DNA of 49,912 nucleotides, taken from assembly GCA_001792115.1 (NCBI GenBank), contig MGFX01000001.1:188694-238605 (forward strand). The letters are read 5' to 3'. Positions 7,328 to 44,094 of this stretch are shown piece after piece. The notes below the pieces were generated by a model. It had not been told where the DNA came from. It ran no database searches and worked only from the letters and a program-made list of their open reading frames with translations. A program made the position numbers and the translations under genes. Numbering within the stretch: the stretch's first letter is position 1; each line of letters starts with the position of its first letter. The stretch is from Candidatus Woesebacteria bacterium RBG_16_42_24. Its GTDB lineage: Bacteria; Patescibacteriota; Microgenomatia; UBA8517.

Positions 7328-7936
7328 ATGATGGCGAGTAATATTTGGAAAGATGCTCAAAAATTTCTCTTCAAGGATAAATATATAGGGAGTTTGATTA
7401 AAAAGTATGGTTCTTGCAAAATAAGACCCAGGGCCAAAAAGTATTACTTCGAAGACCTTATTGATGCAATAGTCGGCCAGCAGCTTTCCGGCAAGGCCGC
7501 AAAGACGATTTTTGAAAGAGTAAAGGCAAGGTGTGAAGGAAATATTACTCCAGATAAACTTATTAAACTAAGAACCGAGGAACTAAGAAAATGCGGGCTA
7601 TCTTATGCAAAGTGCTCTTATGTAAAAGATTTGGCGGAAAAAGTTAAAAGTTCAAAGTTAAAAGTTAGAATTTTGGATAAACTTTCGGACGAAGAAATAC
7701 TTAACGAGTTAATTGCGGTCAAAGGAATAGGGAAGTGGACGGCAGAAATGTTTCTGATGTTCACACTTGCCCGTCCGGACGTGTTTCCGGTGGACGATTT
7801 GGGGATCGGAAAGGGAATGCAAAAATTACTCAGAAGGAAGATTAAATCCCTAAATATGGCTAAATACGCGGAACGTTGGAAACCCTATCGTACAGCCGCC
7901 GCATGGTATATTTGGAAGGTTGTCGATAGCAAGTAA
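7328..7936 (+). CDS. alkA: DNA-3-methyladenine glycosylase II (HhH-GPD)
   Basis: AIVGQQLSGKAA, VKGIGKWTAEMFLMF, DVFPVDDLG, WKPYRTAAAWYIW. Confidence 0.92.
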   Translation: MMASNIWKDAQKFLFKDKYIGSLIKKYGSCKIRPRAKKYYFEDLIDAIVGQQLSGKAAKTIFERVKARCEGNITPDKLIKLRTEELRKCGLSYAKCSYVKDLAEKVKSSKLKVRILDKLSDEEILNELIAVKGIGKWTAEMFLMFTLARPDVFPVDDLGIGKGMQKLLRRKIKSLNMAKYAERWKPYRTAAAWYIWKVVDSK

Positions 7937-7958
7937 TCAAAAAACCCAAAACTCTAAT

Positions 7959-8552
7959 TTACCGTGGCAACACGGTATACGGGCTAACAGGGATTCCGTT
8001 TTTGCGAACTTCTAGGTGCAAATGATCGCCCGAAGAACGGCCACTTGAACCCATTTCTCCAATTACAGTATTTGTGTCAACGACCTCACCCTCGAAAACA
8101 TCAATTTTTGAGAGATGGGCGTATAAGGAGGAAATTCCCTCTCCGTGGTTAATAAGTATTGCGTTACCGTAAGCATATCTCGAGGTCGAAATAAGCTCAA
8201 TTATCCCATCTTTTATGGGATGGATCTCATCTCCAGTACTCCCGTCAAAATCGATTCCAGGGTGAAAAGTTCGATAACCTTGCGTAATTTTTATCTTTTT
8301 AATCGGGTACTGGACAACCACCTTGGTTGTTAAGTTAATTTTATTTTCAACGACGATTTCGACATTAGCCGTTTCTTCTTCAAAAGCGTTTGTCGGAATA
8401 AATGAAGCTGCAACTAGCATTAAAGCCAAATTTCCACCCATAAGAACTTTAAGTTTTTTATGTCCAAAGACGGCTCTTCCCAATAGGACCACCTGCCTTG
8501 AAAACTTGGAAAGAAGGCGAGCAAAGGAAAGATTTAATAATTTTTCTAACAT
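7959..8552 (-). CDS. M23 family peptidase
   Basis: HPGIDF (HxxxD), SSLYAHL, GSSGRSSGDHLHLEV (HxH). Confidence 0.93.
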   Translation of the reverse strand: MLEKLLNLSFARLLSKFSRQVVLLGRAVFGHKKLKVLMGGNLALMLVAASFIPTNAFEEETANVEIVVENKINLTTKVVVQYPIKKIKITQGYRTFHPGIDFDGSTGDEIHPIKDGIIELISTSRYAYGNAILINHGEGISSLYAHLSKIDVFEGEVVDTNTVIGEMGSSGRSSGDHLHLEVRKNGIPVSPYTVLPR

Positions 8553-8556
8553 AAGA

Positions 8557-8653
8557 CCCCGTCACAAAGGCTGACGGGGCAAACCCCCACACCATCTTGC
8601 CTCTCGCCTTTTTGGTACTATTCGTACACGGCTCGAGGTGCGATTGGGTGGGG
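8557..8653 (-). other. Structured 5' region of the M23 gene (candidate cis-regulatory RNA/repeat)
   Basis: 8-bp stem 8557-8579 four nt from the ATG, plus a long irregular hairpin 8584-8653 whose arm recurs at 48095-48134. Confidence 0.45.
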
Positions 8654-8654
8654 T

Positions 8655-8682
8655 AAATAAAAAATCCCGACTGAGTCGGGAT
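8655..8682 (-). terminator. Intrinsic terminator downstream of tRNA-Cys and the hypothetical gene
   Basis: ATCCCGAC-TCA-GTCGGGAT followed by TTTTTATTT on the minus strand. Confidence 0.75.
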
Positions 8683-42418: not shown

Positions 42419-42765
42419 GGCGTAGGCGTTAATTCCCCTGAACCAGTTGCTTCCGGAGTTACACTAGGCGATCCGCCAGCTGGCGGAGTCAAAGTAGGAT
42501 TTTCTTGGGAAAGTTCTTGAGTAATCTGCGGGCCCTGATTTACAAATGTCTCTGGCACATCTGTCTCTCCAAAATAGGTTCTTGCGGCAAGGGACGCCAA
42601 AGTTTCCCTGTCTAGATCAGGCGAAATAGGCTCTAGGATTTCAGGAGGAACATTGACTGAAGGTTGAGTTATAAGTGCCCTATAGACGCTAAAAGCTATC
42701 CACATAAATATTGTGATTACCGTGAGGATTGCTGTACTAACCAAAGCCGGGGTTTTTTTCTTCAT
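42415..42765 (-). CDS. Small membrane-anchored hypothetical protein
   Basis: N-terminal TM; coupled to the downstream gene. Confidence 0.7.
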   Translation of the reverse strand: MKKKTPALVSTAILTVITIFMWIAFSVYRALITQPSVNVPPEILEPISPDLDRETLASLAARTYFGETDVPETFVNQGPQITQELSQENPTLTPPAGGSPSVTPEATGSGELTPTP

Positions 42766-42770
42766 CTTTA

Positions 42771-43418
42771 TTACTTAAGATACGGCGATCGGGCATTTAT
42801 GACAAGAATCAATTCTCTGCCCGCCTCGCTTTCCTCAGTATTAATATATAATGTGTCTAATTTGTAAGGCCTCCTTAACCCTTCCATAGCTTGGACAAAA
42901 GAAGCAAGGAGGGGATAGTCAGAGGTTGAGCTTAAGGAAAACGTTAACCCCTCAGCCCCTACTGGGAGAACATCGAGTTTGGTAGATGTATCTAAAGTAC
43001 CATCTCCCAGAATGTTAACTTTTCCCATTGAAAGGGAAAGTATTGTGACTGGATTTTGGCTGGCAACCCCCTCCAATTGTCGAACAAGAGCCTCCGGCTC
43101 GCCCTTTTTAGGAATAGCTAGTTTAAGTAGATCTATATTTGCTCGCTCTTCTTCATAAAGCACCTGGGCGCGATTTAAATTCTCAATTTTCTGATTCATG
43201 ATTGACAAAATTTGCCTTTTACCCTCTATTTCTTTAATCAGTTCTGCCATAGCGACAAGTGTGGGTTTTATGGCAAAGATGCCAAAGATGGAAATAGTGG
43301 CTAGAGAAAGGAATAGCTCCATAAAAACTTTAAGGTCTTGTCGCTTTTGATAGTGACCCACGACATCTAGAAAATAGGACTTGTAACGCAAGTAGTTTGC
43401 CCTCCAACCAACTGCCAT
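42771..43418 (-). CDS. pilO: PilO-like type IV pilus assembly protein
   Basis: TM then coiled coil, AIPKK, YPLLASFVQAMEGLRR ferredoxin-like pattern; adjacent to the pilN-like gene. Confidence 0.65.
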   Translation of the reverse strand: MAVGWRANYLRYKSYFLDVVGHYQKRQDLKVFMELFLSLATISIFGIFAIKPTLVAMAELIKEIEGKRQILSIMNQKIENLNRAQVLYEEERANIDLLKLAIPKKGEPEALVRQLEGVASQNPVTILSLSMGKVNILGDGTLDTSTKLDVLPVGAEGLTFSLSSTSDYPLLASFVQAMEGLRRPYKLDTLYINTEESEAGRELILVINARSPYLK

Positions 43419-43419
43419 G

Positions 43420-43980
43420 TTAGATTTCCTCCTTTGCTAAACTCACATCGAGGCTAAATTCAAGAAGAGAAGGATCGTTACGGTTTGTCTCAACTGATTT
43501 TAGGGTTGTTTTAGGGTAGCCTGCGTTTTTCTCAAGGTTGACTGCGAATTGGACGATACTTCTCTCACTCGGCGAAAGACCATCGACCGTAAGGCTTTCT
43601 CCAGAGAGTGAGATTTTCGATAAAAGTACATCTTCCGGAATATTCACTGAAATATTGCTGAATATTTTCGAAAAAGAGACGCTATCTGACGTTAGAGTCT
43701 TATATATAATTAACCTTTTTTGAACTTCTATAAATTCCCTTTCAAAATCCTTAGAGCTGGCAATTAACGACTGTTTCTGTTCTATTTCTTCAGCTAAGTC
43801 CGCATTTTGAGCGTCCAGCCAGAACCTTGAAATGAAGGCTAAGATAACCACGAGCTCTGTGACAATAACGATATAACGAAAGGTGGAAAGAGCCCAGGAG
43901 AGAATTCTTCCGGTGGTTGTTACCGCAAATTCCTCTGAGGGAAGAAGATTAATCAATCGTTGTTTCTTTAGGGCAGCCAT
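43420..43980 (-). CDS. pilN: PilN-like type IV pilus assembly protein
   Basis: INLLP motif, TM, IPEDVLLSKIS..G..LTVDG; start moved to 43980. Confidence 0.75.
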   Translation of the reverse strand: MAALKKQRLINLLPSEEFAVTTTGRILSWALSTFRYIVIVTELVVILAFISRFWLDAQNADLAEEIEQKQSLIASSKDFEREFIEVQKRLIIYKTLTSDSVSFSKIFSNISVNIPEDVLLSKISLSGESLTVDGLSPSERSIVQFAVNLEKNAGYPKTTLKSVETNRNDPSLLEFSLDVSLAKEEI

Positions 43981-44094
43981 AGAGTCGCTTACGCTCCAAT
44001 TTCTAATTTCCAAACTCCAAATTCCAAACTGGTAACAGAATCGAATTCTATTCCTCAATATACCACATGGAAAGGGGTGAGAGAAGCAAAAACT

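Follow-up and report, generated by a model that had tools for sequence, protein, structure and literature searches.

In-Frame 7–8-nt Tandem Blocks in Core Genes of a Candidatus Woesebacteria Genome and Their Possible Link with PF05635 Cassettes

Introduction

If the unit length of a repeat is not divisible by three, one expects the repeat either to be kept out of coding sequence or to work as a switch of the reading frame. A stretch of 49,912 nucleotides from Candidatus Woesebacteria bacterium RBG_16_42_24 (contig MGFX01000001.1; hereafter the window) carries tandem arrays of 7–8-nt units that, although the genome is minimal, lie stably and in frame within its core genes. How do such arrays arise, and what keeps them? 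The first-pass annotation of the window had proposed a lineage-specific repeat-generating or templated-editing process, distinct from ordinary phase variation of simple sequence repeats (SSRs), in which arrays may overwrite sequence rather than insert into it. The analysis reported here describes blocks of nearly fixed size that appear to have been written repeatedly, from a limited vocabulary of words, at one and the same protein position in separate lineages. It also suggests a link between block load and genes of the PF05635 family.

Heptameric repeats have been described in Xanthomonas (GGGAATC) and Nostoc (GGGGAYT), and earlier as the short tandemly repeated repetitive (STRR) sequences of the cyanobacterium Calothrix; their function is unexplained (PMC4692102). 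In Xanthomonas, 70–75 cases of two convergent arrays able to form stem-loops were reported (PMC4692102). The heptamer excess in bacteria, the inverted pairing in Xanthomonas and the abundance in Nostoc and Calothrix are already published, and the repeats are still uncharacterised (PMC4692102).

Arrays were detected with the Tandem Repeats Finder (TRF) program in the window, in the whole genome that holds it (G000; 873 kb, 7 contigs, the window being C1:188694-238605) and in its relatives. By its PcrA relatives, the genome falls within Patescibacteria, in the company of Woesebacteria and Microgenomates. Merging of overlapping TRF rows gave 155 blocks genome-wide: 80 in open reading frames (ORFs), 56 intergenic and 19 at ORF edges.

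Excess, Size and Vocabulary of the Blocks

In the window, 11 arrays of period 7 or 8 with at least 3 copies were found, against 0.22 ± 0.48 (maximum 2) expected from 100 local dinucleotide shuffles. The whole genome contains 120 arrays of period 7, whereas periods 8, 6 and 9 account for 34, 16 and 8 arrays, respectively. As the first-pass annotation had anticipated, array density also exceeds shuffled expectation within coding DNA: across all coding sequences (CDSs) of the genome, 65 period-7 arrays were detected versus 1.35 in 20 codon shuffles (48-fold), and the corresponding values for periods 8, 6 and 9 were 18 versus 1.3, 15 versus 3.3 and 5 versus 1.5. Both kinds of shuffle rule out chance and composition as the source of the arrays. 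An assembly artefact is ruled out by identical arrays in nine independent assemblies and by arrays in metagenome-assembled genomes from several groups.

TRF recovered every array of the first-pass annotation to within a few bases, the weakest being that at 31945-31972. According to Pfam, the host genes are those it had named: an HhH-GPD glycosylase, a UvrD helicase with a PD-(D/E)XK nuclease, FemAB, UvrD/PcrA and PilN. Two features had not been listed beforehand, namely, the genome-wide spread, strongest in intergenic DNA, and an inverted 8-nt pair within CDS 3891-4808.

With over-represented 7-nt head-to-tail units, the arrays belong to the class of heptanucleotide tandem repeats. They are also preferentially intergenic and often form inverted pairs, as is usual in that class: block density is 75 per 100 kb in intergenic and 10 per 100 kb in coding DNA, a 7.5-fold difference, non-coding DNA making up 8.5% of the genome. 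Atypical is the location of 80 of the 155 blocks inside ORFs. Heptamer repeats vary in copy number between loci and strains, whereas here the range is narrow and nine strain-level contigs have arrays of equal length.

The median copy number is 4.3 in coding and intergenic blocks alike (p = 0.52; interquartile range 3.7–4.7), which corresponds to a block of approximately 30 nt with 7-nt words and 33 nt with 8-nt words. Since the size is the same in coding and intergenic DNA, it is intrinsic to the blocks and not the result of a reading-frame filter alone. A pure frame filter (one seed plus three units) was accordingly discarded as the sole cause of the 4.x copies.

The simplest alternative is ordinary heptanucleotide SSR slippage, governed by the active-site footprint of the polymerase, with purifying selection against out-of-frame and stop-containing products; the PF05635 link would then be a phylogenetic coincidence. 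This explanation is possible, although we consider it rather unlikely. Heptamer excess is known across many bacteria, and the copy numbers cluster at 4.x and 7.x, as slippage could produce. However, the intergenic blocks, which are free of any frame, share the 4.3-copy size, and intermediates with two and three copies are not abundant.

The vocabulary of the blocks is common to separate loci, which also counts against slippage. Word families include AAATTGG, AAACTGG, AAAACTC and AAATTCC, among others, and an exact counterpart among the intergenic words exists for 25 of 57 coding-block words (4.0 expected), or for 51 of 57 (29.5 expected) if one mismatch is allowed. Coding blocks are in frame and occupy loops of housekeeping proteins that are prone to indels, and their sense strand is free of stop codons in all frames. 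Blocks of an ABAB type, perfect at period 14/16 and imperfect at 7/8, are frequent (27219-27249; C1:90966, C6:170978, C1:307696; L123:2653-2679). In these blocks, a piece of two units seems to have been copied in the latest round of homogenising, and in a CDS such copying would shift the frame unless it was done in place.

Recurrence of Words at the FemX Site

The FemX gene (29920-30969, minus strand) contains a perfect 8-nt block at 30339..30369 (minus strand; unit GAGTTTTT, 3.9 copies, 100% matches), which lies in frame and encodes the peptide KTQKLKNSKTP. In the sense reading, it consists of three copies of AAAACTCA followed by AAAACTCC. The loop that houses it, measured from a conserved W to IARLL in 70 homologues, is 7 aa long in 19 proteins, 14 aa in 40 and 15 aa in 7; of the other four, three have 11 aa and one has 6 aa. 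The increments of +7 and +8 aa equal three units of 7 nt and 8 nt, respectively. The loop of the window is exactly 8 aa (3 × 8 nt) longer than that of the short-loop homologues, and removal of three units from its block leaves a short loop of ancestral length. Slippage with selection explains such three-unit steps and is a serious rival here; against it, a jump from one to four units in an essential gene needs a multi-unit event.

The block (AAAACTCN)x4 was found at an identical FemX position and with identical length in five lineages, the window, L123, L124, L125 and L126, whose FemX proteins are 65–70% identical. The four-fold third-position identity of these genes is 0.31–0.41 over their whole length, i.e., saturated. 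Nevertheless, the blocks are identical between lineages at 28–32 of 32 nt, and third codon positions match at 9–10 of 10 sites in the block versus 5–10 of 16 in the conserved flanks. Slippage does not predict that a word is kept between lineages despite saturated synonymous sites. In addition, three of the four units of the window block carry one and the same C-to-A difference from the blocks of the other four lineages, which is the mark of concerted evolution.

On a loop-masked FemX tree, the five AAAACTC rows required five changes, at least four of them forced by well-supported branches, and the nine CAATCAC-type rows (the word family of the PcrA array at 32421..32455) required nine. The (AAAACTCN)x4 block thus recurs in at least four non-sister lineages, and a single ancient origin was rejected (five changes for five rows, at least four forced). 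Since two words cannot both be ancestral at this site, recurrent writing from a limited vocabulary follows. That separate lineages hold the same words, conserved at the nucleotide level, at matching positions of the protein points to active writing or homogenisation of repeats, or to a function at the nucleic-acid level. As to the proposal of a templated-editing process, the concerted change and the DNA-level conservation beyond saturated synonymous sites speak for it in part, and any editing mechanism is putative.

The functional possibility was considered separately. The blocks could be kept as binding sites for IVP-like proteins (PF05635; see below), by antisense pairing with transcripts of hairpin arms, by occlusion of ribosome binding sites or as flexible Lys/Asn/Ser-rich linkers, their origin being secondary. 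DNA-level conservation past synonymous saturation is in line with this, but the same site holds different words in different lineages, many homologues have no block there, and selection at the peptide level cannot yield identical third codon positions. As a general explanation, function seems quite improbable.

Two other observations concern FemX. The P0012/P0023 and P0013/P0036 proteins differ by exactly 7 aa in the loop (HKEMVKEGKAP versus NPAG/KPAG). All four group in a single clade that is well supported but not resolved internally and whose end branches are short (0.07–0.10); this appears to be a recent gain or loss of three units. At 30265-30309 of the window (minus strand, FemX aa 221-235), an in-frame 45-nt GC-rich hairpin with a folding free energy (dG) of −22 encodes NPPATPERSDGGRGG. 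It is present in a single copy in the genome and missing from most homologues, and it occurs at the same site in the distant P0002, P0003, P0004, P0016 and P0019. This hairpin is a second kind of in-frame mini-insertion.

Stability among Near-Identical Strains

Nine contigs from independent metagenome assemblies are 99.94–100% identical to window positions 19920-40855. At the consensus level, they contain no indels over up to 21 kb, with 7+ arrays covered, and no substitutions within the blocks of interest. No phase variation is visible at this level. The absence of unit-number variants in nine assemblies also weighs against slippage.

These data bear on the possibility that the blocks are phase-variable contingency loci, in which genes would be turned on or off as units are gained or lost. 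In principle, each change of a 7–8-nt unit would shift the frame, and heptanucleotide phase-variable loci are reported elsewhere, e.g., neuO of Escherichia coli K1 and the promoter repeats of HMW1A of Haemophilus influenzae. These loci resemble the blocks in having a 7-nt unit in or near genes; they vary in unit number and switch surface factors, whereas the blocks are invariant and sit in core genes. No frame-switching polymorphism in unit number was found at the consensus level of the nine assemblies. The hosts are not surface, antigen or restriction-modification genes; they encode a glycosylase, helicases, FemX and proteins that resemble RecF, a ligase, Pth and RluD. Of these, PcrA, FemX and the Pth-like, RecF-like and RluD-like ones are housekeeping or essential. 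Moreover, the arrays are short (4–5 units), often degenerate and identical in length across lineages. Contingency loci are therefore a scarcely credible explanation. Stable and DNA-conserved, the blocks are not ordinary on/off repeats, and the distinction from phase-variable SSRs drawn by the first-pass annotation was borne out by the zero indels of the near-identical contigs.

In one of these contigs, L114 (sample ERZ27254767), gene prediction splits the helicase-nuclease gene into two ORFs, 352 and 605 aa long. Its sole difference from the window in this gene is A>T at 26113, the first base of codon 353 and away from the arrays, which is probably a premature stop.

Insertion and Possible Rewriting in Coding Loops

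Loop lengths in the window genome were compared with those of three array-poor genomes (73 array-site comparisons). The loop was within 1 aa of its array-poor counterpart in 34 comparisons (47%) and 7–10 aa longer in 17 (23%); it was never more than 4 aa shorter. In comparison with the array-rich G020 and G027, the differences were symmetric, from −21 to +11. The array-bearing loops are thus strongly variable among relatives, as the first-pass annotation had supposed.

Perfect blocks occur in both classes. Those of the RluD-like protein (NFQFPISNFQ aligned to NFKYLLIGDR) and the Pth-like protein are in place, as is the block of the glycosylase, while clean insertions of +9 aa were found in the RecF-like and ligase-like proteins. 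The suggestion that arrays overwrite rather than insert may hold for part of the sites: it accords with the 34 comparisons within 1 aa, while at many others the loop has simply gained an insertion of +7 to +10 aa. The clean insertions in 17 of 73 comparisons fit slippage; the existence of relatives of the same family without arrays does not.

In PcrA, the segment aa 76-88 carries arrays with differing words in five relatives, and the L123 protein has arrays at both PcrA sites of the window. A search for residual periodicity in array-poor orthologues of 7-nt sites gave 0.290 at lag 7 versus 0.284–0.295 at other lags, the divergence being too high for any to be expected.

Inverted Arrays, Hairpins and PF05635 Cassettes

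Intergenic blocks are frequently paired: an inverted partner (at least 16 of 21 bases) was found for 23 of 56 blocks versus 2 of 155 in the null set. In the typical intergenic element, (TTCCAAW)x4 forms the left arm and (WTTGGAA or CTGGAAA)x4 the right arm, with 35–45 nt of A/T-rich loop between them; folding z lies between −4.5 and −5.8. Loops of the TTCCAAW family share the motifs TAATTATCAAA and TTCGAATTT within the arm-loop-arm layout. This family therefore has the terminal inverted repeats and the conserved interior in many copies that characterise MITEs (miniature transposable elements with inverted repeats) and repetitive extragenic palindromic (REP) sequences. The right arm commonly ends 9–25 nt ahead of a start codon (19 of 56 intergenic cases within 25 nt), a position that would suit a function in translation such as occlusion of the ribosome binding site.

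In the window, one intergenic hairpin lies at 21545-21660 between divergent TrpR-like and RmuC genes. Its 5' arm is a degenerate 8-nt block of about 5 units (TCGGTTNN, 21548..21593, plus strand) and its 3' arm a degenerate 8-nt block of about 6.6 units (CTGATNAN, 21597..21651, plus strand); the TRF array call for the pair spans 21570-21651. The plus strand folds with dG −36.4 (z −4.7) and the minus strand with −21.8 (z −1.6). This strand asymmetry, together with G-U pairs, suggests an RNA structure and is a further point on the side of function. The words of 21548..21593 are similar to the arms of one PF05635 cassette (C5:34836-35159).

Eight genes of the PF05635 family (23S rRNA intervening-sequence protein, IVP; Avd-like) were found in the genome outside the window: C1:1060-1356, 11864-12181, 17271-17573, 27154-27462, 127521-127832, 155529-155828 and 166438-166758, and C5:34836-35159. 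All eight have inverted degenerate 7–8-nt arrays on both sides, each cassette with a word of its own, and the cassette words CTCAAAA and TTTCCAA are the commonest block families elsewhere in the genome. Inverted-array flanks are also present in most of the 21 PF05635 genes examined in relatives. One of the eight proteins matches the PDB entry 2GSC, ‘Putative uncharacterized protein XCC0516’ (E = 5e-19). Judging from the XCC prefix, XCC0516 is a protein of Xanthomonas campestris.

The block load follows the presence of PF05635 genes. The number of blocks per 100 kb and of PF05635 genes was 17.6 and 8 in the window genome, 17.2 and 7 in G020, 12.0 and 11 in G027, 4.2 and 5 in G011, 2.8 and 0 in G018, 2.5 and 0 in G008, and 1.0 and 0 in G009 (7 genomes, rho 0.85, p = 0.015). 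The arrays are therefore patchy, with 1.0–2.8 blocks per 100 kb in three relatives and 12–17.6 in others, which agrees with the lineage-specific process proposed by the first-pass annotation. In a pattern scan of 31 relatives (AAANTNN x3.7, no more than 1 mismatch), the number of matches also correlated with the PF05635 count (rho 0.59, p = 4.5e-4), and pattern-rich genomes numbered 0 of 8 among IVP-less and 15 of 23 among IVP-bearing ones (Fisher p = 0.0024). On this correlative ground, the leading candidate for an agent or a donor of words is the system of IVP cassettes and hairpin elements. Covariation of IVP and arms was observed as a potential sign of specific recognition; inheritance of whole cassettes predicts it equally, and it was not used.

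The PF05635 family has been described as Avd-like (PMC10053308). The cassettes resemble 23S rRNA intervening sequences with an IVP ORF and the Avd proteins of diversity-generating retroelements (DGRs) in that an ORF for a PF05635/Avd-like four-helix bundle lies between stem-forming inverted repeats (PMC10053308). Such an ORF within an inverted-repeat stem is found in all 8 cassettes of the window genome and in most of the 21 in relatives. Unlike 23S rRNA intervening sequences, the cassettes lie between protein-coding ORFs and not in a 23S rRNA helix, and their stems are built of phased heptads. Nor do they have the reverse transcriptase that accompanies the Avd-like protein in DGRs: the genome encodes one reverse transcriptase, far from every PF05635 gene, and none was found in the block-rich G020 and G027, so that the blocks do not go with this enzyme. 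For this reason, DGR-like retrohoming by a reverse transcriptase and Avd was ruled out.

The sole reverse transcriptase gene is located at C1:286740-287324 (348-aa ORF), and a TAGTGAA x3.9 array lies approximately 450 nt downstream. At the site of the C1:356050 block, (AAACTCA)x4.4, the IVP-less and array-poor G018 has AAAACTG-CAAATAC-AAAACTC-AAAA, which may be a decaying block.

The hairpins and cassettes also suggest a MITE-like family of mobile elements. The PF05635 cassette (arm, ORF, inverted arm) would be its autonomous member, the blocks would be element ends or fragments, and those in genes would be whole hairpins or single arms whose insertion happened to keep the frame. The existence of both cassettes and ORF-less arm-loop-arm forms with conserved loop motifs, the co-inheritance of cassette arms with the ORF, the complete inverted pair inside CDS 3891-4808, the +9 aa insertions at several sites and the PF05635 association all fit this scheme. 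However, an inverted partner was found for just 9 of the 80 coding blocks, and about half of the sites show no gain of length, so that solitary length-neutral coding blocks are left unexplained. In addition, PF05635 is no known transposase, and the FemX increments correspond to three units instead of a whole arm. A MITE-like origin is thus doubtful.

Proposed Origin of the Blocks

The explanation that we favour, with moderate confidence, is a recurrent, register-keeping process of copying and homogenising that is tied to the hairpins of IVP cassettes and filtered by selection. Non-reciprocal copying in a 7–8-nt register, e.g., by template switching or short-tract conversion, would make a block grow from a short seed by three added units (+21 or +24 nt, i.e., +7 or +8 aa); alternatively, an existing tract would be rewritten in place. 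The units would be kept homogenised afterwards, and selection would pass frame-preserving, stop-free products in tolerant loops. The system of IVP cassettes and hairpin elements would be the agent or the donor of words.

Several points weigh against this explanation. The copying mechanism is putative. The link between blocks and PF05635 is correlative and confounded by phylogeny: the trend is not significant inside the window's own family (p about 0.1), and the link is therefore suggestive. There are also exceptions, since G024 and G029 have one IVP gene and many matches, while G011 has five IVP genes and few AAANTNN matches. Loops classed as in place could be old insertions that have decayed in relatives. 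The word GGAAAAT of some perfect in-place blocks occurs nowhere else in the genome, so conversion from dispersed donors cannot account for all cases. In FemX, the conserved Pro-Ile codons (CCAAT) at the loop edge could serve as a recurrent local seed, which would favour simple slippage. Finally, genes were called by a simple ORF rule.

A bolder version of the favoured copying process can be imagined, although we think it improbable. A dedicated system free of reverse transcriptase would employ a pentameric PF05635/Avd-like protein that reads phased heptads, approximately one unit per subunit, and promotes templated writing or re-homogenising of blocks of about 4–5 units; it would produce both the intergenic hairpins and the in-place changes to the loops of essential proteins, in Patescibacteria and perhaps in Nostocales and Xanthomonas. 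Were this true, the coding blocks might be cis sites that tie housekeeping mRNAs to the RNA or protein of the element.

Comparison with Known Repeats

With the repeats of Xanthomonas and Nostoc, the blocks share the 7-nt excess, the preference for intergenic DNA, the inverted pairing and the lineage-specific words, but half of the present blocks are in frame inside housekeeping genes. The words are A/T-rich, no G-quadruplex being possible, and there are many word families per genome. The blocks are fixed at about 4.3 units, in contrast to up to 14–26 units in those genera. A link to PF05635 cassettes is suggested here, and none is described in PMC4692102.

An excess of long heptanucleotide SSRs in prokaryotes, with slippage over the polymerase footprint as a hypothesis, was reported by Mrazek and colleagues in 2007, as summarised in PMC4692102. 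Going by that summary, the blocks are alike in the preference for a 7-nt unit over 6, 8 and 9 nt; they differ from variable-length SSRs in being of fixed length, absent from close relatives, conserved in word between lineages and in frame in coding loops.

Tandem repeats of Borg elements are reported to create disordered protein regions (PMC9879509). The present blocks, like those repeats, are pervasive and recent, occur both between genes and in ORFs and add low-complexity loops. They have units of 7–8 nt, and the frame is kept by three added units or by rewriting in place. In Borgs, genic units are reportedly divisible by three and variable in copy number. Here, CDS arrays with period 7 (65) and 8 (18) exceed those with period 6 (15) and 9 (5).

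Our literature search found no account of heptamer arrays in genomes of the candidate phyla radiation, and none of in-frame blocks of fixed length in essential genes or of a link to PF05635. The PF05635 cassettes represent a concrete, testable candidate partner for bacterial heptamer repeats, and the blocks suggest a route for new protein loops in streamlined genomes.

Other Arrays of the Window

The inverted pair of CDS 3891-4808 was detected by TRF. Its left arm, an in-frame 8-nt block of 4.0 copies (AAGATACT, 4575..4606, plus strand), encodes aa 228-239 of a linker; the right arm, an 8-nt block of 4.4 copies (CTTAGTAT, 4631..4665, plus strand), is the reverse complement of the left-arm word and encodes aa 247-259 of the same product, a weakly nucleotidyltransferase-like protein. 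The region 4570-4670 folds with dG −29.5 (z −6.1), and 6 of 12 relatives have arrays in this linker.

The HhH-GPD glycosylase gene (7328-7936) contains an in-frame 7-nt block, AAAAGTT, of 4.1 copies (7639..7667, plus strand, 90% matches; peptide EKVKSSKLKVR), and the loop shows a difference of 0 aa from the array-poor G018.

The gene for the UvrD-helicase/PD-(D/E)XK nuclease (25057-27987) has two blocks on the plus strand. The 7-nt block AACTCAA x4.3 (25567..25598; TRF 25567-25596) is in frame and encodes NLKPKTQNSK (aa 171-180), its loop being longer by 14, 5, 3 and 8 aa than those of G018, G008, G011 and G027, respectively. The 8-nt block CGAATYAA x3.9 (27219..27249; peptide AELTNQRINKS, aa 721-731) is a 93% match as a 16-nt ABAB unit, with loop differences of −1 to +4 aa versus relatives; the L123 PcrA gene carries a related word, AACGAATT.

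Two in-frame 7-nt blocks on the minus strand belong to the PcrA gene (31607-33466). The degenerate array at 31945..31972 (sense AATCACG-like, 4.1 copies, 68% matches; aa 499-508) is the weakest of all and surfaced only in a scan of the PcrA CDS alone; L123 has AATCACA x4.0 at the homologous site. The array at 32421..32455 (GTGATTG x5.0, sense CAATCAC, 78% matches) encodes QSLITSRQSPIT (aa 338-349) in a loop longer by 1 to 6 aa than in relatives.

Upstream of pilN, a 7-nt block of about 5 units (sense TTGGAAN/TTGGAGN, TCCAAAC-type) occupies 43994..44030 on the minus strand (TRF 44009-44030, by eye 43994-44028). It was correctly placed by the first-pass annotation in the 5' leader, outside the CDS: 13 nt separate its end from the true ATG downstream, near 43979, and the PilN protein starts with MAALKKQRLINLLP. 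This is a solitary block of the right-arm type and of the commonest word family, for which no partner arm was found.

A different kind of repeat is present in the ORF at 38945-40570, where a perfect 9-nt repeat (AATTTACAA x2.7) lies at 39661-39684; unlike the 7–8-nt blocks, its unit is itself in frame. In the gene tables of the strain-level contigs, a pair of a ParE toxin and a PhdYeFM antitoxin adjoins a DUF3850/ASCH gene, at approximately 28030-28540 of the window.

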